From assembly GCA_041389925.1 (NCBI GenBank), contig JAWKQX010000006.1, positions 215,837 to 279,836 on the forward strand: DNA of 64,000 nt. The letters run 5' to 3'. Numbering within the stretch: position 1 is the first letter of the stretch; every line of letters begins with the position of its first letter. The position numbers were made by a program, and so were the translations under genes. Shown here in pieces: positions 6,011 to 45,094 of the stretch. The DNA is from Kofleriaceae bacterium (GTDB taxonomy: Bacteria > Myxococcota_A > Polyangia > Haliangiales > Haliangiaceae). The notes beneath the pieces were generated by a model that saw only the letters and a list, made by a program, of their open reading frames with translations, was not told the origin of the DNA and did not search any database.

Positions 6011-7093
6011 TCACGCGCCCGACGGTGCCAGCACAGCTCTATTCCCTAGCCCGGTTCCTGGATGTGCGCTGCGCGCGCCGATGATGGGCCGGAACTTCGC
6101 TGGGACCTTCGTCGTTGGCTCGGCAGGCGAGCAGGGGGAGCGATCAGGTGGGAGCAGCTTGGGGGTGCTTCGCTGTTTTCGTTTCCCGAAGAACTGCGTG
6201 GCGATCTCTCTCGCGAACACTTCCGCGAGCAGGGAGGGCACCGCGTTCCCGATCTGGCGCTGCACTTCGGTTCGACTGCCCCTGACCTGAATGTCATCCG
6301 GAAACGTCTGGATGCGGGCGAGTTCTCTCATCGACAGTCGCCGGTTCTGCCAGTGAAACGGCCCTACTGCTGGACCGGGTTGCGCCTGAACCGTCCAGGA
6401 CGGCAAGTGCTTTGCGAGCTTGAGCAAGAACGACCAGTAGCGGCGGCGCCAACCAAACAGTTCTTCCCCTCCCATGCGACTGGTGTGCCACGGGTAGTTG
6501 TGGCCCTCCGGGATCGATGGAAGTAAATCCGCCCACCGACCAGTGAGGGCGACTGGTTCGCCTGGCTCTGGCCCCACGTCTGCGAGCGCGTCCCACGCCG
6601 TGCGATAGAGGGAGAGCTGCGACGAAAACAGATCAGTCGGCGATTTCGTAGGATCCGCGTGAGTTGGTCCTGGAAACCTGAACTCTGAACCGTCGCGAGA
6701 CGCGACCATGACCAGTTGACATGGTGGCCCCCCAATCAGTACGGCGGCCTCTCCCTTCTTCAAGTTGACGCCCTCGAGGATCTCACCGCTGGGCACTTTC
6801 AAGATGTCCCTCTCGATCACGGGCCAGCCCCTCCCGTTGTTGCGCAGCGTCTCCTGGAGCAGTCGGGAGAGAACACGTGGAAGATGCCCGCATGAGATTC
6901 TTCGTGGGACGTGTCGACGCGCACGCGCGTCCTTCCGGTGTGGGCGATGTAGCCGATCGGCTACAAACGCCGCGAAAGGTGACCGTCGCTTCCTGCGCGC
7001 CAGGATTTCCGCTACGTTCGCCCCGTGAGAGCGCGGTGGCGCGGTGGAAGCAGCGAACGTCGAGACCTCGAAGCGGCGGATGAGGTGTGGCAT
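6011..7093 (-). pseudogene. C5-cytosine DNA methyltransferase-like gene, degenerate (motif I SAM-binding region absent)
   Basis: C-terminal 360 aa of the long minus ORF carries GGPPCQ (motif IV) and RELARIQTFPDD...QIGNAVP (motifs IX/X). No FxGxGG motif I is present, and the upstream part of the ORF is a low-complexity shadow. Confidence 0.5.
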
Positions 7094-7246
7094 GACGAGG
7101 CGCGACGCTTGGCAGTCACGAAGGTGTCCGCCACCGATGATGCGCTGTTGGCGCAACTGCTTGAGGGAGGCAAGGCTGCTGCGCTGGCCCCGGGCAAGCT
7201 GACGCTCGTAGAGGCCGAGCTGCTGCGAGCCAGTCGGACGCCGCAG

Positions 7247-24730: not shown

Positions 24731-26551
24731 TCAAGGCGCGCTGCCCTCGAGCTCGGGGCTCGCGGTCTCGACGCGGAACACCGGGAGCAGGTTCATGCGC
24801 TCGTCCCAGGACGGGTGGCGCCGGTAGAAGAACTGCAGGCGCTCGCGCGGGGACATCTCCGGGTCGTCGGCGAGGGCTTGCTGGTACGCGGCGGCGACGT
24901 GCGGGTCGCGGAGCATCTCACGCGCGACCTGCTCGGCGACGTACGCCTCCATGTACTCCTTCTGCTCGAAGACGGCGTTGAAGAAGCCCCACGCTGCCAG
25001 GGAATCGGGCGCGCTGGGCTCGAACAGGTTGAGCACCAGGCGGGCGCGCGGCTGCGCGATGGGGATGAAGATCGCGCCGGTCTCGAGCGCGCGCGTCTCG
25101 TCCGTCCACGCGCCGGTCAGGCGCGCGCGGGTGCGGCCCTCGAACGGCGGATCGAACGCGGCGTCGCTGGCGCGGAAGACCTGCACCGCGGCGCGCGGCG
25201 TCCCGGCGATGACGTGGTAGCGGATGCCGTGCGCGTCGAGCCGCTCGCGCGCGATCGGCGCGAACCCGCCATCGACGACGTAGCCGCGCATGGGCGCCTT
25301 GACGGTCAGCGTGGGCGCGAGCTCGGCGTAGAGCGGCACGTTCCAGATCTGCGGCTGGGTCTCGTCGTAGCGGATCCACGGCGCGCCGGAGATCTCCGAC
25401 GTGAACGTCTCATATTGGTAGCCGCGAAAGGCCAGCGGCTCGGCCTTGCCCGTGGGCCCCCACAAGAGCGGAACCTCGGCGCCGGCGAGCTGGGCGAGCT
25501 CGGCGTCGGCGCGGTCGGCGGCGGCGCGCCAGCTCGCCGCCTCGGTGACCGAGAGCTCCAGCAGGACCTGCAGCGTGTGGTACATCGACTGCGCGCGCTC
25601 CTTGTAGGTCCGCCAGCTGTGCGTCTCGACGAGGATGCCGAGGCGGCCGCGATCGGCGGCGTACGGGGTGGAGAAGCGCGGCGGGGCGTCGCCGCGCGCG
25701 AAGCCGGAGAGAGGCTCGTCGTTCTCGACGAACGATGGGTAGAACGGCAGCGGTAGGTGGCCCAGCGCGGTGAGGCGGGCCTGCAGCGTATTGGAGAGCG
25801 CGGCGGCCGCCTCGTCGAGCGCGTCCGGGCGTGGCACCTGCGGTGACACCATGACCGCGACGTCGTGCTCGAACTGGGCGCCGTCCGTGGTGTGCAGATC
25901 GAGGAAGATGACCGGATCCCAGCGGGTGAGCGCGCCGAGCACCGCGCGGATCTCGGCGCTGTCGGCCTTGAGGAAGTCGCGGTTGAGGTTCTGGTTCTGG
26001 CTGTTGGTGCGAAAGCCCATCTCCGCGGGCCCGCGCTGGTTAGGGCGGTTGTTGGCGGCGCGGCGCTCGTGGCCGTCGGGGTTGAGCACCGGGATGAACA
26101 CCACGGTCACGGCGGTGGCGCCGCCGGGCGCGAGCTTGCCCTCGAGGAGATCGCGCAAGAACGCGAAGCCGGCGTCCTTGCCCTCGATCTCGCCGGCGTG
26201 GATGCCCGCCTGCACGAGGAGCACCGGTCGCCGCGCGCGCTTGGCCTCCGACGGAGAGAGCACGCCGTCGCCCGAGACGATCATCGACAGGATCGGGCGG
26301 CCCTGCGCGGTGCGGCCGAGCTCCTCGCAGCGCGCCTTCCCCGGGAACGCGCGCGGGAAGGCGTGGCAGAGGGTCACCGCCTCGTCGTAGTGGCCGGTCT
26401 GGAGGTACTCGGTGGACTCCGCGGTGGTGCGCAGCGCGGTCGGCGAGATCGCGGCGGCGCCGCAGCCGACGAGGAGCGCGGTCGCGAGCGCGGAGGCGAG
26501 GGAGGGCGTCGCGGAGCGTCCGCGCGCGACGCAGGAGGTCAGGTCGAACAT
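24731..26551 (-). CDS. M14-family zinc carboxypeptidase (secreted/lipoprotein)
   Basis: LLVQAGIHAGEIEG (HxxE zinc ligand), ...NPDGHE..., NRDF, and an N-terminal signal with LLVGC lipobox. Start chosen at MFDL (26551). Confidence 0.75.
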   Translation of the reverse strand: MFDLTSCVARGRSATPSLASALATALLVGCGAAAISPTALRTTAESTEYLQTGHYDEAVTLCHAFPRAFPGKARCEELGRTAQGRPILSMIVSGDGVLSPSEAKRARRPVLLVQAGIHAGEIEGKDAGFAFLRDLLEGKLAPGGATAVTVVFIPVLNPDGHERRAANNRPNQRGPAEMGFRTNSQNQNLNRDFLKADSAEIRAVLGALTRWDPVIFLDLHTTDGAQFEHDVAVMVSPQVPRPDALDEAAAALSNTLQARLTALGHLPLPFYPSFVENDEPLSGFARGDAPPRFSTPYAADRGRLGILVETHSWRTYKERAQSMYHTLQVLLELSVTEAASWRAAADRADAELAQLAGAEVPLLWGPTGKAEPLAFRGYQYETFTSEISGAPWIRYDETQPQIWNVPLYAELAPTLTVKAPMRGYVVDGGFAPIARERLDAHGIRYHVIAGTPRAAVQVFRASDAAFDPPFEGRTRARLTGAWTDETRALETGAIFIPIAQPRARLVLNLFEPSAPDSLAAWGFFNAVFEQKEYMEAYVAEQVAREMLRDPHVAAAYQQALADDPEMSPRERLQFFYRRHPSWDERMNLLPVFRVETASPELEGSAP

Positions 26552-26764
26552 GCGGTCACCAAACCAGGTTTTCCGGTGGCCGGCAACTCCTCGACGGCCG
26601 AGCCGGCGCACTGGAAGACGCTGCGCCGCGGGCCCGCGGAGGCCTGCGAAGGGCCCGCGAAGGGCCCGCGAAGGTGCGAAGGGAATGTTTCGTCGCCGTC
26701 ATGGCGTACGCTAGGACGTGCGGCGCACGGCGGCTGGACGCAGAGGCGATGGATGACTCGATCG

Positions 26765-28168
26765 ATGATGACGAAGCGGCGGTTGCAGCGGTCGCTGCCC
26801 TGGATGGGCTGCCTCGGCGTGGGTGCGATCGCCGCGGCTTTGGGTGCGTGCGCCTCGCCCTCGGCCGCGCCCAACCAAGGGCGCGCGGCGCCGCCGGCCG
26901 GTGGACCGCCGTCCACCTCCGCGCCCGCCGGCGCCGTCGCTGGAGGCCCCCCCACCGCGCCCGCCTCCGACGAGCCTGAGCCCGACAGCGGGGCGTCCTG
27001 CCCGCCGTGCCCCAGCGCCGACGTGGATCCCGAGGGGCGCTCGCAGAGCCCGAGCGTGCGCGACAAGCTCACGCTGACCCGCGTCACCTTCGCCGAGCTG
27101 CCCGGCTGGGACGACGATCACCACGCCGAGGCGCTGCCCGCGGTGCTGGCCTCGTGCGACAAGCTCGATCAGCTCAAGGACCGCGCGCCGCTGGGCGTGG
27201 ACGGCAACGGCGGCCAGGCGCGGCACTGGCGCGCGCTGTGCCGCGGGGCGCGCAAGGTCAAGCCGGGCGACGACGCCGCGGCCAAGGCGCTGCTGGAGCG
27301 CGAGCTCCGCCCGTACGCGGCGAGCGGGCGCGCCGGGCGCGACGGCAAGATGACCGGGTACTACGTGCAGGCGCTGCGCGGCTCGCGCACCCGGCACGGT
27401 CGCTACCAGGTGCCGATCTACGGCCGCCCCTCGGACCTGGTCGTCGTCGATCTCGCGCCGTTTCTGCCCGACGCGCGGGGGCGCCGCATCTGGGGCCGCC
27501 TCGACGCCAAGAAGGGCTCGATCGTCCGCTACCCGACGCGCGCCGAGATCCGCCGCGGGGCGCTGCGCGGGCAGGGGCTGGAGATCCTGTGGGTCGACGA
27601 CGCCGTCGACGCGCTGTTCGCGCAGATCCAGGGCTCCGGCAAGGTCGCGCTCGACGACGGCACCGAGCAGTGGATCGAGTTCGCCGGCAAGAACGGCCGC
27701 GCCTATCGCGGCGTGGGGCGCATCCTGCGCGATCTCGGCGAGCCGCCCGGCACCGGCACGATGCAGGGGATCCGCCGGTACTTCGCCGCGCACCCCGACA
27801 AGTTCAACGAGATCGCCGATCAGAACGAGTCGTTCGTGTTCTTCGGGCTGTCCAAGCGTCCGGGCGCGGTCGGCTCGCAGGGCGTGATCCTCACGCCGCG
27901 GCGCTCCATGGCGGTCGACCGCGCGTTCGTCGCCGCGTCGACGCCGATCTGGGTGGAGACGCGCGCGCCCGATCGCGCGGGCAAGGTGCGGCCGTGGCGC
28001 CAGCTCCTGGTCGCGCAGGACACCGGCGAGGGCATCCGCGGCGCGGTGCGCGGCGACATCTACTGGGGTCACGACGAGGAGGCCACCGAGATCGCCGGGC
28101 ACATGGGCGGCAAGGGGCGCTATTGGCTGCTCTTGCCCAAGCGCTTGAAGGTGCGCACGGGGAAGTAA
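26765..28168 (+). CDS. mltA: membrane-bound lytic murein transglycosylase A (MltA; 3D domain) lipoprotein
   Basis: MMTKRRLQRSLPWMGCLGVGAIAAALGAC lipoprotein signal, MltA domain (FAELPGWDDD...YYVQALRGS...) and C-terminal 3D domain (VAQDTGEGIRGAVRGDIYWG). The annotated 25865 start is a shadow extension. ATG 26753 is an alternative start. Confidence 0.8.
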   Translation: MMTKRRLQRSLPWMGCLGVGAIAAALGACASPSAAPNQGRAAPPAGGPPSTSAPAGAVAGGPPTAPASDEPEPDSGASCPPCPSADVDPEGRSQSPSVRDKLTLTRVTFAELPGWDDDHHAEALPAVLASCDKLDQLKDRAPLGVDGNGGQARHWRALCRGARKVKPGDDAAAKALLERELRPYAASGRAGRDGKMTGYYVQALRGSRTRHGRYQVPIYGRPSDLVVVDLAPFLPDARGRRIWGRLDAKKGSIVRYPTRAEIRRGALRGQGLEILWVDDAVDALFAQIQGSGKVALDDGTEQWIEFAGKNGRAYRGVGRILRDLGEPPGTGTMQGIRRYFAAHPDKFNEIADQNESFVFFGLSKRPGAVGSQGVILTPRRSMAVDRAFVAASTPIWVETRAPDRAGKVRPWRQLLVAQDTGEGIRGAVRGDIYWGHDEEATEIAGHMGGKGRYWLLLPKRLKVRTGK

Positions 28169-28214: not shown

Positions 28215-29111
28215 ATGCGAACGACCAAGCTCCTCGCCTTTGTGCTGCTGGCGGCCGCCGCCTGTCAGCAAGAAGGTCCACCCAAGTTTCAGTTCTCCAA
28301 AGACGTCGAGGCTCCCGCTGCCGCCTCGGGGGACCTCGCCACGCGCGTCGCCGCGCTGGAGGCGGAGGCCGCCAAGAACAAGGAGGCCCTCGAGTTCCTC
28401 AACCAGGTCTTCGCGCAGCAGAAGAAGGCCTCCGATGAGGAAGAGCGCCGCACCGCCGCGCCCGACGCGGTCTTCGCGATCGGCATCACTGGAAACGCCG
28501 TTGACGGTCCCGCCACCGCCGCTGTGACGCTGGTGGAGGCCTGGGACTTTGCTTGACCCTACTGTGAGAGGGTCAGTTCGACCCTCAAGCAGCTGGTGAA
28601 GGAGTACAACGGTCAGCTTCGCGTCGTTTACAAGAACTTCGTCGTGCACCCCGACACGGCGATGGATGCTCACCTCGCCGCGTGCGCGGCGCAGGCGCAG
28701 AACAAGTTCATGGAGTTCAAAGAGGCCTTCTGGGTGAAGGGCTTCGGCGAGTATCGCAACACCCGCGACCCGAGCAAGATGGCGGAGCCGGCGCTCCTCG
28801 AGATCGCCCGGGGGCTCGGCCTCAACGCCGACAAGCTCAAGGCCGACATGCGCGGCTCCACGTGTCAGGAGCGCGTCAAGTCGGACCAGGACGAGCTCAA
28901 TCGGTTCGGCGTCGGCGGAACGCCGGCGTTCTTCATCAACGGCAAGCCGTACCGCGGTGGTCCGGACGCGTCCCAGTTCAAGGCCGCGATTGACGCCGCG
29001 CTCAAGCAGGTGCAGGGGTCCGGCGTCGCGGCGAAGGACTACTACCAGAAGGAGGTCCTCGAGAAGGGCGAGAAGAAGTTCCGCTCGATCAAGGACCCCA
29101 AGCCGAGCTAG
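28215..29111 (+). CDS. DsbA-like thioredoxin-fold thiol:disulfide oxidoreductase lipoprotein, predicted selenoprotein (UGA at 28554-28556 read as Sec within a U-P-Y-C motif)
   Basis: ORFs 28215-28556 and 28596-29111 are in the same frame and separated only by TGA. The translation aligns residue-for-residue with the downstream paralog across the TGA (...LVEAWDFA-U-PYCERV...LKQLVKEYNGQLRVVYKNFVVHPDT versus ...LVKAFDFA-C-PYCQMA...VKQLVKEYNGKLRVVYKNFVVHPDT). A hairpin sits 14 nt downstream. Lipobox: LLAAAAC. Confidence 0.65.
28557..28590 (+). promoter_or_regulatory. candidate bacterial SECIS element (stem GAGGGUC / GACCCUC 28568-28574 and 28580-28586, apical loop AGUUC)
   Basis: Perfect 7-bp stem starting 11 nt after the UGA, with a GU-containing 5-nt apical loop about 22 nt downstream. 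This matches bacterial SECIS geometry. The paralog lacks this palindrome because its codons differ (ERVSSTLK versus QMANDPVK). Confidence 0.55.
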
Positions 29112-29278: not shown

Positions 29279-30199
29279 ATGCCAAAGACCAAGCTCCTCG
29301 CCTGCTCGCTGCTCGCAGCGATGTCAGTCGCCAACGCCGCGTGCGATGACACGCGGAATCCGAAGTTCGAGTTCAAGTCCGCCGAGGCGGCGACCGCCGA
29401 GGCGGCGATGGGCTCCGGGGACCTCGCCTCGCGCGTCGCCGCGCTGGAGGCCGAGGCCGCCAAGAACAAGGAGGCCCTCGAGTTCCTCAACCAGGTGTGG
29501 GGACAGCAGAAGCAGCAGCGCGAGGCCCAGGAGGCCACGGTGCCGGCGCCGGACGCGGTCTTCGCCATCGACGTCACCGGCGATCCGTATGACGGCCCCG
29601 CCGACGCGCCGGTCACGCTGGTGAAGGCCTTCGACTTCGCGTGCCCCTACTGCCAGATGGCCAACGATCCGGTCAAGCAGCTCGTCAAGGAGTACAACGG
29701 CAAGCTGCGCGTCGTGTACAAGAACTTCGTCGTCCACCCGGACACCGCCACCAACGCGCACCTCGCCGGCTGCGCGGCGTGGGAGCAGAAGAAGTACATG
29801 CAGTTCAAGGACGCCTTCTGGGAGAAGGGCTACAACGCGTACCGCTCGACGCGTGATCCGTCGAAGATGGGCGAGGAGAACATCCTGGCGATCGCCAAGG
29901 AGGTCGGCCTCGACCTGGCGAAGTTCACCGCCGACATGAAGGGCGAGAAGTGCAAGAAGCAGCTCGAGGGCGACATGGCCGAGCTGTCCAAGTTTGGCAC
30001 CAACGCGACGCCGTCGTTCTACATCAACGGCCAGCCCTACCAGAACGGCCTCGAGGTCGCCTCCTTCAAGTCGGTCATCGACCAGAAGCTCAAGGAGGTC
30101 GAGGCGTCCGGCGTGCCGGGCAACCAGTACTACCAGAAGGTCGTGATCGAGAAGGGCGAGAAGAAGTTCCGCTCCAAGAAGGATCCGAAGCCGTCCTGA
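29279..30199 (+). CDS. DsbA-like thioredoxin-fold thiol:disulfide oxidoreductase lipoprotein (Cys form, CPYC active site)
   Basis: FDFACPYCQ active site, signal/lipobox (VANAAC), 306 aa. Paralog of 28215-29111. Confidence 0.8.
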   Translation: MPKTKLLACSLLAAMSVANAACDDTRNPKFEFKSAEAATAEAAMGSGDLASRVAALEAEAAKNKEALEFLNQVWGQQKQQREAQEATVPAPDAVFAIDVTGDPYDGPADAPVTLVKAFDFACPYCQMANDPVKQLVKEYNGKLRVVYKNFVVHPDTATNAHLAGCAAWEQKKYMQFKDAFWEKGYNAYRSTRDPSKMGEENILAIAKEVGLDLAKFTADMKGEKCKKQLEGDMAELSKFGTNATPSFYINGQPYQNGLEVASFKSVIDQKLKEVEASGVPGNQYYQKVVIEKGEKKFRSKKDPKPS

Positions 30200-32093: not shown

Positions 32094-32176
32094 GGTCGCG
32101 GAAGTCTCGGGGGTGCCCTTGGTAGGTGCGATCGGGCGCGCTAAGGTGCAGTCGTCTGCTCGCAAAGGAACAAGCC

Positions 32177-32575
32177 ATGGCGACGATCGAGATCACGTCC
32201 GAGAACTTCAAGAGCCACATCGAGAAGGCCGGCATCCTGGTGCTCGACTTCTGGGCGTCCTGGTGCGGTCCGTGCCGGGCGTTCGCGCCGGTGTTCGAGA
32301 AGGCCTCCGAGACTCACGCCGACGTGGTGTTCGGCAAGGTCGACACGGAGGCGCAGCAGGAGCTCGCGGGCTCGGCGGAGATCACCGCGATCCCCACGCT
32401 GATGCTGTTCCGCGACGGCGTGCTGCTCTTCCGCGAGTCCGGCGCGCTGCCGCCGCCGGCGCTCGACGAGCTGGTCAAGCAAGCCAAGGCGCTCGACATG
32501 GACAAGGTGCGCGCGGAGATCGCGGCGCACGAGCACGAGCACGAGCACGGCCCGGGCTGCAACCACGATCACTGA
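32177..32575 (+). CDS. trxA: thioredoxin
   Basis: WASWCGPCR active site, AIPTLMLF, and an aaggaa RBS 7 nt upstream of ATG 32177. C-terminal His-rich tail. Confidence 0.85.
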   Translation: MATIEITSENFKSHIEKAGILVLDFWASWCGPCRAFAPVFEKASETHADVVFGKVDTEAQQELAGSAEITAIPTLMLFRDGVLLFRESGALPPPALDELVKQAKALDMDKVRAEIAAHEHEHEHGPGCNHDH

Positions 32576-34289: not shown

Positions 34290-37106
34290 GTGCGTCTCCG
34301 GCCTTCTCTGATCTGCGTCACCGCGGCGCTGAGCTGCGCGGGCCTCGGCGTCGCTGGCGCAGAGCCGACGACAGGTTCGACGACGGGGCCCGCTGGGCCC
34401 GGGCCGACGACGAGGCCCGCCGGGCCCGGGCCGACGACGGGGCCCGCTGCGCCGGGGCCGATGCCGGGGCCGACGGCCGCCGCGGCGGTGACCGAGGCGG
34501 ACGCTCGCCGCGATCTTTTCGGCCTTTCGCGCGCCGAGGTGGTCGCGCGGTGTGGCGAGCCCTCGTCGGACGACGAGGCCGACCGGGCCGGCGGCCCGGC
34601 GCCGATGCCGTGCGCGATGGGCCAGGACCCGCTCGCCCTGGAGTCTCCGCTCGGCTTGACGACGCGGCTCGGGCGCGCCGCGCTGCTCCGGTTACCCGGC
34701 GCGGATCTCGCCCATGACGAGCCGGTCGAGCTGACGCTCGGCGTGCGCGCGGACCCCGGCGGCGCCGTGTTCGCCGGCGCGTCCAGCCTGGAGAGCCGCT
34801 GGACCATCGAGGGCGCCCCCGCGGGCTCGCTGCGCACGGGCGCGGCGGAGACCCGGCTGCCGCTGCAGTTTCTCCGCGCGCTGCGCGTGACGTCGGGCGG
34901 GTTCGCGGCTCGCGACCGCGCGTCCAGCGGCGGCGTCATCGACGCCGAGCTGCGGCGCGGCGGCCGGCGTCACGTCGTCGAGGTCGCGGCGTGGAGCGGG
35001 CTCCAGACGGAGCGGCGACGCCGGCCGACGTTGCCAGGCACGTTCTCGGTGCTGCGCGGACGCGTCGTGGATCCCCGGTTCGTGGCGCTCACGTCCGTCG
35101 CGAGCGGGCCGCTGCCCGACGCGCTGGGCGGCAAGCTCTGGTACGCGGTCGGCCTCGCGCCGAGGCTGACCGACATCACCCTTCACCGCGTCGGAGAGCG
35201 CCTGATCGATCGCGACAACGACGGAGAGGTCGACCTCGATCCGTCGGGCGGGTTCGCCACCGAGCCGATCTCGCGGGCCACCACCGAGGCCACCGCCGCC
35301 GACGTGCCGTGGATGGCGCGGGTCGGGCTCGCGCGGCCCGAGCAGTCGCTGGAGCTGACGCTGGTGGGGCAGTGGACCACCAGCGCGCGCTACGATGTCG
35401 TCGCGACCCCGGAGGCCGTGGCGGTGGACCGCGACGCGCTGCTCGTCGACGGCATCGCGACGTGGCGGCGGAGCTGGAGGTCGACCGCGCTGCGCGCGCA
35501 GGTCGCCTGGCACCGCAGCGCGCGCGGCGAGCGAGCCGCGGACGCGCGCGCGGGCGAGGTCCCGCAGGTCCAGACCGCGTTCGTCCCGGACGCCGCCGAC
35601 GTCCCGCAGGAGGATCCGCGCTTCCTCGCGGCCTGCCGAGACGACGCGGACGACCTCTACCCGCGGATCCCCAACTGCCCGATCCTGACGGGCTGGTACT
35701 CCCGCGAGGGCGTCGGCCTGCTGACCGATCTCACCGCGGACCGGCCGTCCTTTTCGGCGGAGCTCGTGCATCAGGCCTCGCGGCACGCGCTGCGCGCCGG
35801 GGTCGACGGCGAGGACTCGCGGCTCGTCGAGCGCTCGCGCTACTCTGGCGGCAGCCTGGTGCGAACCCTGTTTCCGGGGCACCTGGATCGCACGCTCTTT
35901 GTAGACGGCCAGGACGTCGTCGAGTGCTCCACGAACATCGACGTCCCGTGCCCCACCTTGTCCGAGGTCTCGCTGACGTATCGCACCCGCGAGGTGGCCG
36001 CGTTCCTTCAGGACACGTGGCGACCGCGCCCGGATCTCGTGATCGACGTCGGGGCGCGCTGGGAGGCCCAGCAGCTCGGCAGCCGGCTCCGGTTCATCGA
36101 CAACCTGGCGCCGCGCGGCGGCGTCGCGTGGGATCCCTTCGGCGAGGGCCGCTCGCGGGTCGCGGCGTCGTTCAGCCGGATGTTCACGTCGCTGCCCACC
36201 GGGCTCGGCGAGCTGATCGACAAGACGCCCTCGGTGGTCCACGAGGTCACCGCGGGAGACGTGCGCGCCCGCGTGCTCGAGCTCGGCAGGATCGCCAAGG
36301 TGCTCGACGGGACCGGCCCGATGATCACCGACGAGGTCGCGTTCTCCGCCGAGGTGACCTGGCCGCAGCTCGGCGCGCTTCGGCTGCGCACGCAGCACCG
36401 CTGGCTCCGCGCGGGATGGGAGGACACCTCCGAAGGGTTCCACAACCCGGCCGCCGCGTCCCGACGAGTTGACATCCTCGGCGCCGAGCTCGCGACCTCG
36501 GAGGTCGCCGACCTCTACGCGCGCGCCGGGTACGCGTGGGGGCAGGCGCGCGGCTCGCTGGTCGGGGCGTTCGATCCGCGCCGCGGCGCGATCCTGTACA
36601 ACAGCAGCGACTTCGACGAGTTCGCGACGAACGCCCACGGCGTGCTCCCCAGCGACCTCGGTCACCGGTTCTACGCGGAGGTCGCGAGGCGGTGGCGCTG
36701 GCGCGGCGTCGAGCTCGACGCCGGCGGCCGCGTGACCCTCGCGAGCGGGCGGCCGCAGAGCGTGGTGGGCGTGAGCGATCTCGTCGGTCCGATCTATCTG
36801 TTGCCGCGCGGCGAGGGCCCACGCTTGCCCACCGTGCTCGCGGCGGATCTGCGGCTGGCCGCCCGCTGGCGGAAGACCGCGCTGTCGCTGCAGGTCCAGA
36901 ACCTGTTCAACCGCGAGCAGGTCACCGCCACCAACGAGGTCTACGCGAACGGCCTCCTCCTGCCGATCGATGGCGGCGACGCCTCGGACCTGACGTTCCT
37001 GAAGTCGGTCACGGGGACGCCAGCGAGACGTTCGCTGTCCTACGGAACGGTCACGAGCTACCAGCTTCCCTTAGTGGTGACCCTGGGCATCGAGGCGGCG
37101 TTCTAG
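34290..37106 (+). CDS. outer-membrane beta-barrel protein (TonB-dependent-receptor-like / OMP), with N-terminal Gly-Pro-Thr-rich repeat linker
   Basis: Signal peptide, repetitive GPAGPGPTT units, and a C-terminal beta-barrel pattern ending in an aromatic residue (...VTLGIEAAF), typical of OMPs. GTG start. Confidence 0.6.
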   Translation: MRLRPSLICVTAALSCAGLGVAGAEPTTGSTTGPAGPGPTTRPAGPGPTTGPAAPGPMPGPTAAAAVTEADARRDLFGLSRAEVVARCGEPSSDDEADRAGGPAPMPCAMGQDPLALESPLGLTTRLGRAALLRLPGADLAHDEPVELTLGVRADPGGAVFAGASSLESRWTIEGAPAGSLRTGAAETRLPLQFLRALRVTSGGFAARDRASSGGVIDAELRRGGRRHVVEVAAWSGLQTERRRRPTLPGTFSVLRGRVVDPRFVALTSVASGPLPDALGGKLWYAVGLAPRLTDITLHRVGERLIDRDNDGEVDLDPSGGFATEPISRATTEATAADVPWMARVGLARPEQSLELTLVGQWTTSARYDVVATPEAVAVDRDALLVDGIATWRRSWRSTALRAQVAWHRSARGERAADARAGEVPQVQTAFVPDAADVPQEDPRFLAACRDDADDLYPRIPNCPILTGWYSREGVGLLTDLTADRPSFSAELVHQASRHALRAGVDGEDSRLVERSRYSGGSLVRTLFPGHLDRTLFVDGQDVVECSTNIDVPCPTLSEVSLTYRTREVAAFLQDTWRPRPDLVIDVGARWEAQQLGSRLRFIDNLAPRGGVAWDPFGEGRSRVAASFSRMFTSLPTGLGELIDKTPSVVHEVTAGDVRARVLELGRIAKVLDGTGPMITDEVAFSAEVTWPQLGALRLRTQHRWLRAGWEDTSEGFHNPAAASRRVDILGAELATSEVADLYARAGYAWGQARGSLVGAFDPRRGAILYNSSDFDEFATNAHGVLPSDLGHRFYAEVARRWRWRGVELDAGGRVTLASGRPQSVVGVSDLVGPIYLLPRGEGPRLPTVLAADLRLAARWRKTALSLQVQNLFNREQVTATNEVYANGLLLPIDGGDASDLTFLKSVTGTPARRSLSYGTVTSYQLPLVVTLGIEAAF

Positions 37107-37291
37107 CCGGAGGTCGACGACGAGGAGCGTCCCCGCAGCGCGTCGAGCGCGCTCGGCGGCGCGTCCGCCCGCGGGCCGCGAGCTGCGCGCGGTGGCGGTC
37201 GTCAGGGCGGCCGCGCACCGTCGCGCTCGTCTGGGTCGCGCGTCGAGACGTTGCGTTTTGGTGGCCGCCTTCATCCGTGAGAGAGGCCGCG

Positions 37292-40200
37292 ATGTTAGCA
37301 TCGAAGCTCTCGAGCCTAGATGTTGGACGGCCCCCAGCGCCGCTCGGACCCCTCCCCATGGCAGACCTTTCCCAACTCCAAGAAGCCTCTCGAGCTGTTC
37401 GCCAAGCGCCTCACGCGGTCACCGCCTGGAGCGACGTCGAGGCGCTGGCCGCCGAGCTCGATCGACCTGATGACCTGGTAGCGCTCTACGGCGAGGTGCT
37501 AGGCGGACAGGTCCAGCCCGAGGTCGCCGAGATGATCGGCGATCGTGCGAGCTCGTTCTGCGACGAGTGGTTCGGCGACGAGCCGGCGATCATCGAGAAG
37601 CTCCTCTATCGCGTGCTCGAGCTGGCGCCCGGATCGGAGTCGGCGCTGCAGCGCCTCTCGGTGATCTACACGACCGCGGAGCGGTGGGCGGATCTGCTCA
37701 AGCTCTACGACCGCGCGCTCGGCGTCGCCAAGGATCGCACGCGCCGGCTGCGCGTGCTCCGCGAGGCGGCGCAGCTCGCCAAGGACGTGGCGAACCAGCC
37801 GGAGAAGGCCATCGGGTATCTGCAGAGCCTCTTGCCGATGGTGCCTGACGACGTGCAGGTCAGCCAGAGCTTGGAGCGCTTGCTGGAGCGTCACGAGCGT
37901 TGGCCGGATCTGATCGCGCTGTGGGAGGGCCGCTTGGAGCGCGAGACCAAGCGCGATCGCGAGCGGAGCCGCGGCCGGATCGCCGCGTGCTGGCTGGACA
38001 ACATGCACGATCCCGGGCGCGCGCTCGCCGCGATCAAGCCGCTGCTCGCGGAGGCCGAGGACGACACGGAGAGCTGCGCGCTGCTCGAGCGCGTCATCGA
38101 GGCGGCGGAGGGCAACCGGCCGGTGCGCGACGGCGCGATCGAGCTCTTGCGCACGCACTATGACGCCACCGCGCGACCGCGCGAGGTGATCCGCGTCCTG
38201 GAGAGCGTGATCGTCCGCGATCCGCTGGGCAGCCGCGCGCTGCGCGAGGAGGCCGGCGCGCGCCTGGCGGACCTGGAGGACGTCCTCGGCGCGATGGGGC
38301 ACTACGCCGCGCTGCTCGCGCTCATCCCCGAGTCGACGGTCGTGGAGGAGAAGCTTCGCACGCTGGCGCAGCGCGCCGGCCAGCACGATCTCTATGCGGA
38401 GGGCGTCGTCGCGGCGGCGCGCGCCTGCGCCGATCCGACGCGTCGGGTGAACCTCCTCGCGGAGGCCGGGCGCACGCGGCTGGAGATGCTCAACGACCTC
38501 GACGGGGCGATCGCGATCCTCAGCGAGGCCCAGCAGGTGACCGACGCCGACGCGCTCGAGCAGATCGCGGTGAACCGGAAGCTCGGCGAGCTGTACGCGC
38601 GCACCGGCCGTCAGGCGGATCGCCTGGCCGCGCTGGAGCGACTGGCCACGGTGGAGACCTCCGGCACGGCGCGCAGCAACATCCTGGGGGAGGCGGCGAA
38701 GCTCGCGGAGTCGCTCGGCGAGACCGATCGCGCGCTCGGGCTCTGGGAGCGGCGCATCCAGGCCGATCCGCAAGACCTGTCCGGCCTCGACGCGCGGATC
38801 GCGCTGCTCGACAACCAGAACCGCTGGGATGATCTCGTCGAGGCGCTGGAGGCGCGCGCCGCCAAGCACCGCTCCGCGGCGCAGAAGCGCGCGGACCTGG
38901 TGCGCGTCGCGCTGGTGCATCATCAAGAGCGGCAGGATCTGAGCGCGGCGATCTCCGCGTGGCAGCGCGTGGTCGCCGATGCGCCGGACGACGCCGAGGC
39001 GGTGATGTCGCTCTCGGAGCTGCTCTCGCAGACCGGGCGCTGGAAGGAGATGGCGGAGCTGCTCGACGGCACCTCCGAGCGGGACACGCGCCGCACGGTG
39101 GCGCGCCTGGTGCGCCTCGGGGACGCGCTGCGCGCGCACCTCGATGAGCCGGGCCGCGCGCTGGCGGCGTACCGCAGCGCCATCGCGGTGGATCCGCGCA
39201 GCGCGGAGGCGCGCGCCGGGCTGACGGCGCTGTTGCAGATCGAGCGGACGCGGCGGGGCGCCTCGGACGCGCTCGCGGCCGCGTTCCGGCAGAACAGCGA
39301 CGCCACCGGCGTGCTCAGCTTGCTGGACGCGCGCCTCGCCGACGCGCCGGACGACCGGACGCGCTTCGCGCTCCTCTGCGAGGCCGCGTCGCTGCGGCTG
39401 GAGCACGACCGCGACCAGCAAGGCGCCCTGGCCGATCTGACCCGCGCCTTCCCGATGTCGCCGAAGGATCAGATCGTCGAGGCGCAGCTCCACGAGCTGG
39501 CCGACGCGACCGGGGAGCACCACCTCCTCGCGATGGCGTACCTGAGTGCGATCGCCGAGCTCGCCGACGAGCCCCGCGAGGCCACGCGGCTGCGCCTGGC
39601 GTACGCTGATCTGACGGCGCGCCACCTGAACGATCCCGTCAACGCCGCCGTCGCCTACGTCGACGTGGCGGTCGCCGATCCCGGCAACCGCCGCGTGGCG
39701 GCCGCCGTCGCCGATCTGTGCGGCGCGCAGGGCCGCTGGACCGACGCGGTGGGCGCGGTGGTGCGCCACGCCGCGGCGCGCGAGCGGTTCGATGACGAGC
39801 TCCTGGAGATCCTGGATCGGCACGCGAGCGAGCGCGACGCCTACGCGCAGCTCGTGCCCGCCCTGACGCAGGCCCTCGGCGAGCACAAGCTGGTGGGGCC
39901 GGTGGCCTCGATGTTCCACTACCGGCTGGCGCAGCTCCACCGCGATCAGCGTCACGAGCCGGGCGCGGCGATCATCGAGCTGCGCCGCGCGCTGGAGCGG
40001 GGCGGCGATCGCTACGCGTGGCTCACCGAGCTGGTGGAGCTGGAGCGCGGCCAGGGCACCAGCCGGCCGCTCCTGGACGCCCTGCGCCGCCTCGCCGAGA
40101 TGGACGTCAACGATCTCGATCTGCTCGTCGAGGCGGGGGACACCGCCTCCAAGCTCGGCGATCGGCCCCCGGCGATCGCCATCCTCGGCCAGGTGCTGGC

Positions 40201-43200
40201 GCGCGCGGCGGTGGCGTGGCGCGGCGGCAGCAGCCTGCGCTCGTCGCGTCCGGTGGACGCGGTGGCGCGCTGGGCGGTCGATGGTCTCGTCGATCTGCAC
40301 CGCGCCGGCGGCAACCCGCGCGCCGCCGTGGACACGCTCGCCGAGGCCGCGCGCCTGCCGTTCGACGAGGCCGGCCGCCGCCAGCTCCGGATGCGCGCCG
40401 CGCAGCTCGCGGCGTCGGACCTGGGCGATCGCGCGACCGCGATCGACATGTATCGCAACGTGCTCGCCGCGGCGCCGCGCGACGCGGAGGTGATCGAGCG
40501 CCTGGCCGAGTTGCTCGCGATGGAGGATCGCGTCCCCGAGATGCTCGGCCTGCGCAAGCTGCAGCTCGACATCGAGTCCGAGCCAGCGCGGCGCCTGCAG
40601 CTCCGGCTGGAGATCGCCAACCTCGTCGGGGTGATCGAGGAGCGCGGCGGCCGCCTCCAGGCGCTGCTCGCCAACCTCGAGGATCAGCCGGGGCACGACG
40701 CCTCGATCGAGGCCGTCTCTCAGCTCCTGTCCGGCAAGGGGCAGCACGGCGCGCTCGCCGATCTGCTCGAGAAGCAGGCGCAGCGCCTGGAGCCGACGGA
40801 GCCGGCGCGGGCGGCCAAGCTGTGGTCGCAGTTCGCGCTCACCACCGAGCGCGACACCCGGGAGCCAGAGCGCGCGATCGCCGGCCACCGCAAGGTCGTG
40901 GCGCTCGCGCCCACCGCGGACTCGCTGCGCGCGCTGGCGCGCCTGAACCTCGAGCGCAGCCAGCCCACCCAGGCGGTGCCGTGGCTGGAGAGCTTGCTCG
41001 GCACGGTGCCCGCGGCGGAGCGCATGGGCGTGGTCTCGCAGCTCGCGCGCGCGCACCTGTCGGCGCAGCACCCGGAGCGGGCGATCTCCGCCATCGAGAG
41101 CAACCTGAGTGACAAGGAGCCCGCGCTCGATCTCCGCGTGATGCTCGCGGAGCTCTACCGCGAGAGCGAGCAGTGGGAGCCGCTGGCGCGGCACCTCACG
41201 CGCAGCCTGCCGCTCCTGCGCGATGACCAGGGCGCGCGCGAGTTCGCGCGCGAGGCCGCTGCCATCTACCTCAAGCTGGGCCAGCCGGCCAAGGCGATCC
41301 CCGCGCTGGAGACCGCGCTCGCCCTCGATCCCACCGATCGCGAGCTGCGCGCGCAGCTCGCCATCGGCCAGCGCGTCGCCGGCAAGCTGCCCGAGGCGCG
41401 CGCGGTGCTCTCCGAGCTGATCGCGGACTTCGGCCGCCGCCGCTCGCCGGAGCGCGCGGTGCTCCACGTCGAGCTGGCGCGCGTCGCGCAAGCAGAGGGC
41501 AACGTCGACGAGGCGCTCAGCGAGCTCGAGCAGGCCTCCAAGATGGACGTCAACAACGCCGACGTGCTCAAGGAGCTCGCGGAGCTGGCGCGCAAGACGG
41601 GGCAGCTCGACAAGGCCGAGCGGACCTACAAGGGGCTCCTGCTGGTGGTCCGCCGCAAGCCGCCGGGAGACGACGAGAGCGCCGTCGGCCAGAGCGAGGT
41701 GCTCTTCGAGCTGCACAAGCTCGCGGCCCAGCGCGGCGACGCCGAGCAAGCCAAGGAGCAGCTCGAGAGCGCGATGGACGCGGCCGTCCAGTCGGACGCC
41801 GAGGTCCGGCGTCTGCGCCGCAGCATGCTGGCGCATGGCGCGGGCGAGTCGCTGCTGCACGTGCTGGAGCAGCGGCTCAAGCTCAGCCCCGAGCCGGCGA
41901 GCCAGGCGCGCCTGCTCTCCGACATGGCCGAGGTGCTGGACGGCTCGCTCGGGCGCGCCCCGGAAGCGCTGGCGGCGATGCTGCGCGCGGTCAACATCGT
42001 GCCGTCGCGGATCGATCTCTACGAGCGCGCGCGTGAGCTGGCCAAGCGCGACGGGGAGACGCGCAAGTTCGTCGACGCCGTCGAGGCGATCGTCGATCGG
42101 CTCCGCCGCAAGGACGACCCGCCGCTGATCGCGGACCTGCTCATGCTCGCCGGCGACGCGCTGGAGCACGACGCGGGCGATCCGCGCGGCGCCGCGGCGC
42201 TGTACCGCCGCGTCGAGATGATGGGCGAGAAGCTGGCCGAGGCCTACTACGCGCAGGCGCGGATCGCGGCCGCGCAGGGCAACGTCGAGGAGCAGGCCCG
42301 CACGCTCGACAAGATGCTCGAGCTCGCCGGCCCCGATCAGCAGGACCCTTCGCCGGCGCAGATCGACGCATTGTATCGCCTGGCCGAGATCTTCATCTCC
42401 ACCGACCACCGGCGCAGCCAGGGCGTGGAGCTGCTCGAGCGCGCGTTCGGCGCCGAGCCGCGCTGGGCGCAGGCGGCGCGGTCCTTGCGCGAGGCGGCGG
42501 CCGCCGATCCGCAGGACGCGCGCGTCATGACGATGTACGAGCGGGTGGCCCGGGCGGGCGGCGACGGCGAGGTCCTGCTGGACTTCCTGGAGCGTCGCGC
42601 GCAAGGGCCGGAGGCCACCACGGAGCAGATCCGCGAGGCCGTGCTCTGCGCGAACGATCTCGGCCGCAGCGACCGCGTGCAGGCGCTGCTGGAGCGCGCG
42701 GTCGGCGTCGCGCGCGAGGGTGTCGACGGCGTGGGCGCCGCGCCCTGGGCCGTGCTCCAGCTCGCCGAGGCGCGGCTGCAGCAGGGCGAGCTGCGCGTCG
42801 CGCGCGACCTCGTCTACGAGGTCGCCTCCGTGGCGGAGTCGCAGGACGTGGACGCCCTGGCGATGCGCGTCGCCGCGCGGGCGCTCACCGGCGGAGAGCC
42901 GCGGCTCGCCGCCGACATCTACGAGTTCTTGCGCGAGCGCACGCCGGCCGAGCGCGCCGTCTGGCAGCCCCTCATGGCGATCTACCGCGAGCTGCGCGAC
43001 GGCGATCGGCTGGCGAGCGTGCTCTCCTCGACCCTCCCGCACCTGACGACGGCGGCGGAGCGCAACGAGCTGCGCCTCGGTCAGGCGAGGTTCCTCATCG
43101 AGCAGCTCGATCGGCCGCACGACGCGCTCGATGTGCTGCGCGAGGCGCTGGCGGAGGACCCCGACGATCGAGAGGCCGCGCAGCTCTTCGAGCAGACGCT

Positions 43201-45094
43201 GCGTGCGCTCGGCGATGACGATGGCATCACGGAGTTCCTGCTGACGCGCTTCGAGGACGCGCAGCGGCGCGGCAACCGCGAGACCACGGTCGACGTCGCG
43301 CTGCGCCTGGGCGCCATCCTGGAGCAGAGCGAGTCTCCCGACACCGCGCGCGTCTACCGGGCGGCGCTCATCGTGGCGCCGGACGATCGTGAGATCTTGC
43401 GACGCGTGGTGGCGCACCTGGGCCCGAGCGACGATCCGCGCGAGGCGGCGGTCCTGATGGAGCGCCTGCTCTCGGTCGAGACCGAGGAGCACGCCCCTCA
43501 GCTCGCCTGGCGGCTGGCGAGCGCCTGGGAGGCGGCGGGAGACTTCCGCGCGGTGCAGCGGACGCTGGAGCTGGCGTACCGCGCCGCGCCCAACGACGAG
43601 GCGGTCCACGATCGGCTGGAGAAGTGGTACCGCGATCGCACCCTCTGGGCCGAGCTCGCGGAGCTGATGATCCGCGACGCCGAGCGGATGGGGACGCGCT
43701 CGGCGCTGCTGCGGCTGCGCGAGGCCGCGAACGTCTACGGCCATCAGCTCGGGCAGCCGCGCAAGGCCGCCGAGGTGCTCGGCATCGCGCTGACGCGCAC
43801 GCCCGGGTCCACGGAGCTCATCACGGAGCAGGCCAACGCGCTGGCCGCCGCGGGGGATCTCGACGCCGCGCAGCAGGCGATCGGCAACGCCATCGGCGAT
43901 CTGACCGGCGCGCCCCGGGTGGCGATGCTGCAGCTCCGGGCGTCGTTCCGCCAGCAGCTCGGCGACGATCCGGCCGCCGTCGAAGATCTGGAGGAGGCCT
44001 ACCAGCTCGACGCCGATCGGATCCAGGAGTCGCTGATCCAGGCGCTGGAGAAGATGCGCACGCACGCCGCCGGCACGGAGTCGGTGGATCAGGAGCGCGC
44101 GGCGACGCTGCGGCTCTCCCAGCTCCACATCATGCACGGCCAGACCGAGCTCGGTCGCAACCTCCTGGTCGCCTGGATCGAGCGGCAGCCCAGCGATCCG
44201 GAACCGCTGATCATGCTCTGCGAGATCGATGAGTCGATCTCGCACTGGGCGGGGGTGATCGCGGGGGCGACGCGACTCGCCTACGTCTCCACCGGCGAGC
44301 CGCAGGTGCAGGCGGCGCTGCGCGCGGCGCACGCGGCGGCCCAGGCGGGCCGACCGGCCGACGCGCTGGAGGTGCTCGAGCTGGTGCACGGCGCCCAGCC
44401 GGACGCGCTCCCGGTGCGGACCAAGCTGCGCGAGATGTACGAGGGCGCCGGCAGCTTCCGCGAGCTCGCCGGGGTCCTGTTCGCGGACGCCGAGCACGGC
44501 GAGGATCCCGAGCAGCGCTACGCCAACTACCGGCGCGCCGCCGAGCTGTACCTGTACCAGCTCGACGACGCCGCGTCGGCGGCCCCGGCGGCGCAGCGGA
44601 TCCTCGAGCTGCGCCCCGACGACCACGCCGCGCTCATCCTCAACGTCGACGTGCTGATCGCCTCGGGGCAGGCCGAGGTCGCGGGCCGCACGCTCGACGC
44701 GGCGATCGCCGCGCAGAAGAAGCGGAGTCCGGAGCTGGCGATCCTGCAGCAGCGCATGGGGCGGGTGTGCCTGGCGCAGAGCGATCGCGAGGGCCAGATC
44801 GCGTGGCTCAAGAAGGCGTTCGACGTCGATCGCAAGAACCCCGAGGTCGCCGCGGAGCTCGCCCAGCTCGCCACCGAGGCCGGGGACTACGAGCTGGCGC
44901 TCAAGCCGCTGCGCGCCATCAGCCTCATGGACAACCCGCTGCCGGTCACCCGGCCGATGGCGCTGCTCTGGGAGGCGAAGATCGAGCACGCGCGCGGCAA
45001 CCACGCCAAGGCGGAGCTGTGGGCCAAGAAGGCGCTGCGCGAGGACCCCGCGTTCGGCGAGGCGCAGCAGTTCCTCGACGAGCTGGGGACCTGA
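37292..45094 (+). CDS. giant (~2600 aa) tetratricopeptide/HEAT-like repeat protein
   Basis: Continuous alpha-helical repeat sequence (e.g. ...[40 protein letters not shown]...) over 7.8 kb. ATG 37292 ([10 protein letters not shown]) is chosen; the annotated 36536 start is Arg-rich junk overlapping the OMP gene. Confidence 0.7.

Follow-up and report, generated by a model that had tools for sequence, protein, structure and literature searches.

The question raised by the gene at positions 28215-29111 (forward strand) of the window, the whole stretch of 64,000 nucleotides of Kofleriaceae DNA that was analysed, is whether its in-frame TGA terminates the protein or is read as selenocysteine (Sec). 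As the preliminary description had stated, the frame contains a single internal stop, the TGA at 28554-28556; it translates to 298 codons and is closed by a TAG. Translation, Pfam and homology point to a DsbA-like (Thioredoxin_4/DSBA) lipoprotein of 298 residues with a U-P-Y-C active site. This genome uses UGA as a regular stop codon, since the tandem paralog downstream (29279-30199, forward strand) itself terminates in TGA. Our reading, to which we give a probability of about 0.88, is that the gene product is an exported DsbA-type thiol-disulfide oxidoreductase, probably anchored by a lipid, with a Sec-Pro-Tyr-Cys active site, the UGA being recoded under the direction of a hairpin.

The TGA falls exactly on the catalytic cysteine, as first described (DFA-U-PYC versus DFA-C-PYC). 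In the alignment to the Cys paralogs it replaces the N-terminal nucleophilic Cys of the CxxC motif: it faces the TGC at 29642 of the tandem paralog, which has C-P-Y-C, and a TGC or TGT in six paralogous or orthologous genes, and the position is a Cys in 116 full-length family proteins. The putative resolving cysteine of U-P-Y-C (TGT, 28563-28565) is invariant at U+3 in all Sec and Cys forms. The window was also scanned for further in-frame TGA codons with coding signal on both flanks; the two candidates obtained, at 553 on the forward and 4087 on the reverse strand, carry no redox motif and have an off-frame composition, and were dropped.

Downstream of the UGA, a perfect 7-bp stem, GAGGGUC/GACCCUC, with the apical loop AGUUC was confirmed at 28568-28586, separated from the UGA by 11 nt (28557-28567). 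The loop G and U lie at 28576 and 28577, 22 nt from the U of the UGA, in agreement with the distance of about 22 nt noted earlier. This candidate SECIS core is supported by folding, conservation and covariation. In the minimum-free-energy check that the preliminary description had proposed, the 19-nt hairpin gave −11.5 kcal/mol (z = −3.9) and the 42 nt from the UGA gave −18.7 kcal/mol (z = −3.7), with 0/200 shuffles as good in either case. The equivalent stretch of the paralog, which, as noted earlier, has no hairpin, gave −9.6 kcal/mol with z = −0.4 and 58/200 shuffles as good. The published model of the bacterial SECIS (PMC13188914, Fig. 2) calls for an upper stem of 4-16 bp capped by an apical loop of 3-9 nt, a G at loop position 1 or 2 that is usually followed by G or U, 16-37 nt from the UGA to the apical loop, and a minimum free energy of −7.5 kcal/mol or lower. 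The element at 28568-28586 has a 5-nt loop on a 7-bp stem, the loop A-G-U-U-C with G at position 2 followed by U, 18 nt (28557-28574) from the UGA to the loop, and an energy of −11.5 (hairpin) to −18.7 kcal/mol (42 nt), and falls within all four published structural constraints. Searches of Rfam, with the whole window at the gathering threshold and with 28500-28660 at a permissive E-value, returned chance matches only; to our knowledge, Rfam holds no model for a bacterial SECIS of this kind.

The reference for such elements is the SECIS of Escherichia coli fdhF, in which a minimal upper stem-loop with a loop G-U is required 11 nt after the UGA and the UGA itself is paired in the lower stem. 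The element described here resembles it in the 11-nt spacing, in presenting G-U in a small apical loop and in perhaps having an outer helix of which the UGA is part. It differs in its sequence and in its perfect stem without a bulged U, and here the binding of SelB is a prediction. In the proposed mechanism, a ribosome positioned at the UGA would leave the hairpin just outside the mRNA channel, where its exposed loop G-U would recruit SelB carrying Sec-tRNA(Sec); SelB would then insert Sec, pre-empting termination by release factor 2.

The same arrangement recurs well outside the window. The TGA form stands in tandem with Cys paralogs in three of the four related genome loci (L002-L004), and two more metagenome orthologues, 72% identical, carry the TGA (L006 and L007). 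A pattern scan of metagenomes yielded at least about 115 further contigs with the same TGA and hairpin, which brings the total to at least about 120 independent sequences. The alternation of Sec and Cys at orthologous loci, which the preliminary description had proposed to check, was strongly positive (TGA versus TGC/TGT). A sequencing or assembly error hiding a true TGC would require a one-base difference from the paralog codon. The probability of such an error is practically negligible: the window sequence recurs letter for letter, TGA and hairpin included, in an independently made Logan assembly (L005, SRR28338158), and more than 100 contigs drawn from many separate metagenome assemblies share the TGA and the hairpin.

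We then considered a pseudogene, in which a nonsense mutation from TGC to TGA would have struck one of two redundant tandem paralogs. The Cys paralog, 170 bp downstream, could cover the function, the locus appears as a truncated gene in public gene calls, and one related copy (L062) is frameshifted. However, the same TGA is found in at least about 120 sequences, some of them with no more than 47-50% protein identity. Except in L062, the 3′ frame is open to the stop or the contig end, running for 165-190 codons past the UGA in copies uncut by a contig end, and the 77 distinct Sec genes taken for residue analysis retain all key residues. The residues kept in 100% of these genes are G+19, R+22, H+31, H+39, C+43, Q+48, W+59, D+97, C+103, the Thr-Pro of the cis-Pro loop at +122/+123, G+129 and Y+163, the same that are invariant in the Cys forms. 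The dN/dS ratio is 0.26 for the closest pair and 0.5-0.7 for distant pairs, the latter values being unreliable given a saturated dS and a strong codon bias; residue conservation was therefore preferred as the measure of selection. The protein 3′ of the UGA is under continued purifying selection. Since decay would keep neither the open frame, nor these residues, nor the frozen rare codons of the hairpin, the pseudogene is contradicted and exceedingly improbable. The orthologs, with their conserved 3′ coding sequence, are not the simple pseudogenes that the preliminary description had named as evidence against its reading.

The codons of the hairpin are fixed beyond what the protein would call for. 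Codons +5 to +8 past the UGA are 100% AGG, GTC, AGT and TCG; AGG makes up 100% of Arg in the hairpin against 3.9% elsewhere in the same genes, AGT 100% of Ser against 1.3%, and codon entropy falls from 0.66 outside the hairpin to 0.13 within it (p = 0.002). A near-identical 20-nt hairpin core is common to Sec genes with only 47-50% protein identity. Each upper-stem pair forms in 94-100% of 101 distinct sequences, with compensatory double changes at three stem pairs, namely U-A to C-G (L006), G-C to A-U (L025) and G-C to A-U (L014, L077), and with a U-G wobble in 9-11 sequences; covariation events are few because the element is almost invariant. In 72 distinct sequences the loop G23 and U24 do not vary. 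When the partners were slid by 1-3 columns, 30-45% of cells paired, against 86% in the tested structure, a figure that counts all 11 pairs tested, the non-conserved lower stem included. These comparisons indicate an RNA-level constraint on the hairpin in addition to the protein constraint.

A longer element is possible. An outer helix at 28552-28601, pairing CUUGAC (28552-28557) with GUGAAG (28596-28601), would enclose the UGA; it has one G.G mismatch in the window, GUCAAG standing there in 65% of relatives, and its pairs form individually in 65-100% of the 101 sequences. The codons 5′ of the UGA are also frozen (TTT 95% and GCT 100%, against 1.7% and 4% elsewhere), and RNAfold draws the helix in a 78-nt stretch. 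A 4-bp lower stem (28562-28565 with 28589-28592) was rejected as a family feature, its third pair forming in only 16-21% of sequences; RNAfold draws this stem for the window sequence. The pairing UGACCC/GGGUCA, chosen by RNAalifold, was also rejected, because the compensatory changes in L006 and L025 preserve the upper stem yet break this alternative.

True termination at the UGA would give a 113-residue N-terminal lipoprotein and a separate 171-residue C-terminal product starting from GTG 28596, and several gene-calling pipelines do give exactly this 171-residue fragment (P0003, P0093, P0161 and others). Nevertheless, the CxxC site would be severed from the rest of the thioredoxin fold, the C-terminal part would have no signal peptide, GTG 28596 is not conserved as a start context, and the conserved hairpin and frozen codons would be left without a role. 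We regard termination as very improbable, and the comparative data make a very strong case for the predicted reading of 28554-28556 as Sec.

The base 3′ of the UGA is a C, and UGA-C is the leakiest stop context in bacteria. A readthrough free of selenium may thus be imagined, in which, helped by the hairpin, a near-cognate tRNA would insert Cys or Trp, or a Cys- or Ser-charged tRNA(Sec) would insert its amino acid. The search for the selenocysteine machinery bears on this point: using Aragorn and tblastn with E. coli SelA, SelB and SelD, selA, selB, selD and tRNA-Sec were not found in the 543 kb of the window and related loci, no tRNA was found in the window and L001-L004, and Pfam returned no sel genes among the 29 window ORFs. 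This absence can be set beside selenium-free readthrough but is uninformative, because the genome spans several megabases. Against such a readthrough, the hairpin agrees with every feature of the SelB-type SECIS model, including the invariant G-U and the 11-nt spacing, and the UGA takes exactly the place of a redox Cys, an arrangement common to all known UxxC selenoproteins. Moreover, a cultured relative from the same NCBI family as the window's MAG (Kofleriaceae), Haliangium ochraceum, is listed as a Sec user with 3 selenoproteins (Peng 2016, Table S2). Selenium-free readthrough is quite improbable on these grounds, and selenium insertion at the UGA is the predicted outcome.

At the protein level, translation and family alignment suggest a signal peptide, MRTTKLLAFVLLAAAAC (28215-28265), up to the lipobox Cys17 (TGT, 28263-28265). 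This N-terminal Cys, equivalent to C22 of the paralog, is invariant in 60 aligned family members, and the closest curated family consists of lipoproteins; as the lipobox AAAC departs from the canonical L-x-x-C, we treat lipidation as probable. The protein scores 77.5 bits with Pfam PF13462 (gathering cutoff 23.2) and 76.1 bits with PF01323 (gathering cutoff 25.6), and its solved DsbA-like homologues are 3GYK, 4PWP and BdbD. The structure model (pLDDT 89.9) represents the Cys paralog rather than the Sec protein itself. In this model, C122-P-Y-C125 opens helix alpha-1 (123-138), the UGA position being the N-cap, helices 154-237 are inserted into the thioredoxin fold, and the cis-Pro loop T244-P245 is invariant in the family. 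The paralog model thus has the CxxC at the start of alpha-1, the cis-Pro loop opposite it and the helical insertion that define DsbA-like proteins, and its fold matches 3GYK (TM 0.85 by target length), BdbD and DsbA. A long N-terminal helix is predicted at residues 49-85 of the model. The full-length Sec protein would accordingly carry a long N-terminal helix ahead of a DsbA fold, and its redox role would be periplasmic disulfide exchange via a selenenylsulfide between Sec and Cys+3.

The preliminary description had placed the UxxC active site in a recognised class of thioredoxin-fold selenoproteins, and such proteins have indeed formed an established predicted class since 2005. The first DsbA-like UxxC selenoprotein was predicted from the Sargasso Sea metagenome (Zhang, Fomenko & Gladyshev 2005, PMC1088965), others later in Anaeromyxobacter, Desulfovibrio and Desulfotomaculum (PMC1794560), and the DsbA-like 'form 1' (PF01323, UxxC) is listed in a 2026 review (PMC13188914). 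As DsbA-like and DsbG-like UxxC selenoproteins have been described since that first prediction, the gene belongs to a known kind; its class is known from computational surveys, and the clade itself is uncurated. It shares with form 1 a DSBA domain above cutoff, Sec as the first residue of UxxC, Cys homologues and a bacterial-type SECIS hairpin directly 3′ of the UGA. It differs in coming from a soil Kofleriaceae (Haliangiales) clade with its own near-invariant SECIS, possibly orthologous to the published examples, and in its lipoprotein signal and long N-terminal helix.

The best NCBIfam match is NF041057 (Rcas_1661 family thioredoxin-like (seleno)lipoprotein), a type of protein named 'DsbG-like protein', with UxxC, in the same review (PMC13188914). 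In the window protein and some relatives the match spans positions 2-246 of the 247 of the model, nearly its full length. The common traits are a lipoprotein, with a thioredoxin-like fold and with Sec and Cys members of UxxC type; here we find the N-terminal Cys invariant in the 60 members and UPYC/CPYC, with lipidation as a probable trait. The scores are 76.5 bits for the Sec protein, 78.8 for the paralog and 60.6-78.1 for five main-clade Sec proteins, all below the curated equivalog cutoff of 190 bits, which points to a distant relative of NF041057 and not a member.

The best structural match is 7RGV, the ScsC of Caulobacter crescentus, over 246 columns with the N-terminal helix included. 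ScsC and BcfH are DsbA-like disulfide isomerases/reductases that form oligomers and carry a helical stalk at the N-terminus. The family has in common with ScsC (7RGV; Proteus mirabilis 4XVW, 5ID4) and BcfH (7JVE) the DsbA-like catalytic domain and the Thr-cisPro loop, but sequence identity is 16-20%, and Sec stands here where ScsC and BcfH have Cys. Pfam detected no DsbB, DsbD or ScsB partner among the 29 window ORFs, and no ScsB/DsbD-like partner was found among the conserved neighbours at 26 related loci. As conserved neighbours of the Sec genes, these 26 longer loci contain a polyphosphate kinase, a TPR/SUFU protein, a DUF3108 protein and subunits of a 2-oxoacid:ferredoxin oxidoreductase, and no functional link emerged from them.

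The tandem paralog (29279-30199) is identical to NCBI MEZ4363323.1, and the Sec protein is 59.8% identical to it over the full length. In the region of the N-terminal helix, 80 nt (28329-28408, forward strand) are 97.5% identical to 29417-29496, while the two genes are 55-75% identical beyond this tract, a pattern that identifies 28329-28408 as a local gene-conversion tract. The preliminary description had proposed that the stem was created by compensatory coding changes relative to the paralog; this did not hold, as the shared 20-nt core marks an old element, and more probably the Cys forms lost the hairpin or never had it. Taken further, and with somewhat less than even confidence, the clade may be a distinct, uncurated family of periplasmic oxidoreductases of soil Haliangiales, ScsC-like, helix-stalked and lipid-anchored, in which Sec would be ancestral. 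The many Cys forms, the tandem paralog among them, would then have arisen repeatedly through duplication, Sec-to-Cys replacement, SECIS decay and tandem gene conversion, and the SECIS, joined with the frozen codons that flank the UGA on both sides, would perhaps be a longer element in which the UGA is paired as well.

In a set of 5.8 billion proteins, the Sec forms among the best 120 matches per search are C-terminal fragments of about 170 residues called 'protein-disulfide isomerase', and no full-length selenoprotein was present among these best 120 matches. A large family of soil myxobacteria is routinely split in two by gene callers; once it is recognised, many Kofleriaceae genomes and soil metagenomes could be annotated correctly. 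The current understanding of Sec decoding is unchanged by this gene. The very strongly conserved SECIS offers a handle with which further selenoprotein genes could be found and recognition by SelB studied in this lineage. The tandem Sec/Cys pairs form a natural system in which to study the benefit of selenium to a periplasmic disulfide-exchange enzyme, and an exported, membrane-anchored selenoprotein would join the selenoproteome of these largely aerobic soil myxobacteria.

The reading frame 28215-29111 (+), translated as 298 codons, is broken by a single internal stop, the TGA at 28554-28556 (...VEAWDFA-*-PYCERVSS...). As the preliminary description had claimed, this TGA lies on the first Cys of a CPYC motif, where it aligns with a TGC (29642) of the paralog located 3' of the Sec gene, at 29279-30199 (+). 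The paralog (MEZ4363323.1 at NCBI, from a MAG labelled Kofleriaceae bacterium) is 59.8% identical to the window Sec protein, and both proteins pass the Pfam Thioredoxin_4 and DSBA cutoffs. The paralog terminates at TGA, so UGA serves this genome as a normal stop codon and a genome-wide reassignment of UGA was ruled out.

We found four related loci, with one genome per species scanned, all in MAGs of Kofleriaceae or 'Deltaproteobacteria'. Of the four, L002, L003 and L004 present the Cys/Sec alternation proposed earlier as a check, with tandem paralogs of which one has TGA at the identical codon (Sec form) and the others TGC or TGT (Cys forms). The Sec proteins of these three loci are just 47-49% identical to the window protein, yet the nucleotides TGACCCTWCTGYNAGAGGGTCAGTTCGACCCTC are nearly unchanged. 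Among the protein matches listed, Sec forms are present only as C-terminal fragments of ~171 residues, namely P0003, the window gene as found in an independent Logan assembly, and P0093; the contigs that carry these fragments (L005-L007) have TGA at the same place. Using the pattern W-D-F-A-UGA-P-[YF]-C, with the hairpin left unspecified, at least 120 metagenome stretches were obtained. Among the matches listed, about 115 belong to the family and have the hairpin, while five match by chance and are unrelated; L062 is frameshifted. Members uncut by a contig end keep 165-190 codons open after the UGA. A sequencing error at the window TGA is excluded, because many independent assemblies share it. 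In L062 the match at 2508 (- strand) is thrown out of frame by an additional C in the hairpin's 3' arm (GACCCCTC), which means either a genuine pseudogene or a misassembly. Two tandem UGA copies, each with a hairpin, are seen in L026 (658, 1571), L033 (173, 1179), L083 (1158, 2126) and L110 (101, 1105); Sec/Sec duplications exist besides Sec/Cys pairs.

The 7-bp hairpin GAGGGUC-AGUUC-GACCCUC at 28568-28586, noticed in the preliminary description, begins after a gap of 11 nt from the UGA, a distance equal to that between UGA and stem in the minimal E. coli fdhF element. Folded alone it gives -11.5 kcal/mol (z = -3.9), and the 42 nt starting at the UGA give -18.7 kcal/mol (z = -3.7), a value equalled by 0 of 200 shuffles. 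The paralog indeed lacks the hairpin, its equivalent stretch folding unremarkably (z = -0.4). The published bacterial SECIS consensus requires 4-16 bp of stem, 16-37 nt from UGA to loop, an MFE <= -7.5 kcal/mol and 3-9 nt of loop, in which the first or second nucleotide is a G with a G or U next to it (PMC13188914, Fig. 2). The window hairpin agrees with all of it: 7 bp, a 5-nt loop starting A-G-U, 18 nt and -11.5 to -18.7 kcal/mol.

The hairpin codons +5 to +10 from the UGA were not imposed by the DNA search pattern. Where +5 is an Arg, its codon is AGG in 100%, against 3.9% of the Arg codons elsewhere in the same genes, and Ser +7 is AGT in 100% (1.3% elsewhere in the same genes). In the Sec genes, Val +6 is GTC and Ser +8 TCG in 100%, while Thr +9 is ACC and Leu +10 CTC in 97%. 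The codon entropy of the hairpin columns is 0.13, that of the other columns 0.66 (Mann-Whitney p = 0.002). For all seven pairs of the upper stem, 94-100% of 72-101 distinct sequences allow pairing, and a U-G wobble is present in 9-11 sequences; when the 3' partners are shifted by 1-3 columns, pairing drops to 30-45% of cells. Two-sided changes occur at three stem pairs (G-C to A-U twice, U-A to C-G once), the last in the variant GAAGGCC-GGUUC-GGCCCUC of L006 and L007, and the loop is always N-G-U-N-N with invariant G and U. These features show that the hairpin of the Sec genes is under selection at the RNA level. The compensatory events would disrupt another conceivable pairing, UGACCC/GGGUCA, and so speak against it, and the 4-bp lower stem of the window was rejected as a family feature, not being conserved.

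Two codons 5' of the UGA, TTT GCT (28548-28553), are rare synonyms frozen in the 77 Sec genes (TTT in 95% versus 1.7% elsewhere, GCT in 100% versus 4%). CUUGAC across the UGA is able to pair with GUC/GUG-AAG, the Val-Lys codons 42 nt downstream (window 28596-28601). This suggests either an outer helix holding the UGA or a termination context effect.

All residues invariant downstream of the active site in 116 Cys forms are kept in 100% of 77 distinct Sec genes, including the resolving Cys (+3), two His, Cys +43, Trp +59, Cys +103 and the Thr-Pro of the cis-Pro loop (+122/+123). For the closest pair, the window gene and L006, dN/dS is 0.26 3' of the UGA. The part downstream of the UGA is thus under protein-level selection, and a pseudogene is ruled out by this residue retention and dN/dS. 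The Cys pair at U+43 (28683-28685) and U+103 (28863-28865), C165 and C225 in the paralog, is invariant in 77/77 Sec and 116/116 Cys forms, and probably forms a structural disulfide within the helical insertion.

In a neighbour-joining tree (active-site region masked, no support values), 66 of 77 Sec genes fall in one clade, within which a few Cys forms are nested; the window gene and L006 instead adjoin a 15-member Cys clade containing the window's own paralog. A 20-nt SECIS core is common to all Sec genes, so the SECIS has a single origin. Given one origin, the scatter in the tree would reflect either recurrent replacement of Sec by Cys or gene conversion among the tandem copies, although it is suggestive only. 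The proposal that compensatory coding changes, seen against the paralog, created the stem does not hold, since with a core shared by all Sec genes it reverses the history or dates it far too late. An 80-nt tract (28329-28408 versus 29417-29496) is 97.5% identical between the two genes, compared to 55-75% in their remainder, and represents local gene conversion between the Sec and Cys paralogs in the N-terminal helix region. Two Cys forms, P0025 and P0030, retain the peptide VEAFDFACPYCRRVSDTLE, near the Sec-type VEAWDFAUPYCQRVSSTLE, and may have switched from Sec to Cys recently, leaving a SECIS in decay.

The N-terminus of the window protein (MRTTKLLAFVLLAAAAC) resembles a lipoprotein signal, whose Cys is invariant in 60 family members. 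In the AlphaFold model (pLDDT 89.9), which is of the Cys paralog and not of the Sec protein, a disordered linker and a long helix (49-85) accompany a DsbA fold, whose CPYC caps the N-terminus of helix 123-138. The top solved-structure match is Caulobacter ScsC 7RGV, in an alignment that takes in the N-terminal helix; also among the best are 3GYK (Silicibacter DsbA-like), BdbD, Corynebacterium DsbA/TsdA, Wolbachia DsbA2, Proteus ScsC and Salmonella BcfH. Because of this lipoprotein-like signal and the DsbA-type fold and matches, the protein likely functions in periplasmic thiol-disulfide exchange; by analogy with ScsC, it could be an oligomeric isomerase or reductase. No redox partner gene was found near the window gene or among its counterparts' neighbours in 26 related loci.

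Upstream of the Sec gene lie two homologues of cell-envelope enzymes, an M14 carboxypeptidase (24731-26611, -) and an MltA/3D-domain lytic transglycosylase (25865-28168, +), convergent and overlapping in the ORF list; the neighbours of main-clade Sec genes differ from these. A thioredoxin of 149 residues (32126-32575, +; PF00085, 90.6 bits) is encoded 2 kb downstream of the paralog pair. The window also encodes a HipA-family kinase (2942-4198), a 1147-residue protein with eCIS-core, SH3 and DUF6861 domains (6983-10426) and a 2873-residue TPR-repeat protein (36473-45094).

The window and 543 kb of related loci contain no gene for tRNA-Sec, SelA, SelB or SelD, as expected of a sample too small to indicate absence. 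Haliangium ochraceum DSM 14365, placed in Kofleriaceae by NCBI, is listed as a Sec-utilising bacterium with three selenoproteins (Peng et al. 2016, Table S2, PMC5029168), which lends indirect support to Sec use in this lineage.

DsbA-like UxxC selenoproteins were predicted in 2005 from Sargasso Sea data (PMC1088965) and later in Anaeromyxobacter and others (PMC1794560), and a 2026 review lists a 'DsbA-like protein form 1' (PF01323, UxxC) and a 'DsbG-like protein' (NF041057, UxxC) (PMC13188914). For the window protein, for its paralog and for five Sec proteins of the main clade, the top NCBIfam match is NF041057 ('Rcas_1661 family thioredoxin-like (seleno)lipoprotein'), at just 60-79 bits against a cutoff of 190. 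Among the best 120 matches per search of a 5.8-billion-protein collection, full-length Sec forms and the name 'selenoprotein' are both absent. The Sec forms among these matches are C-terminal fragments alone, of about 170 residues from an internal GTG or ATG (P0003, P0093, P0161, P0162, P0165, P0167, P0170 and P0173), some named 'protein-disulfide isomerase'; the Sec family is systematically truncated in databases.

The observation is genuine, and that the window gene encodes a selenoprotein is very well supported by these comparisons. It is a new, uncurated and seemingly abundant member or subfamily of an already known kind of selenoprotein. It brings no new principle, its value being chiefly for annotation and for Sec/Cys evolution.
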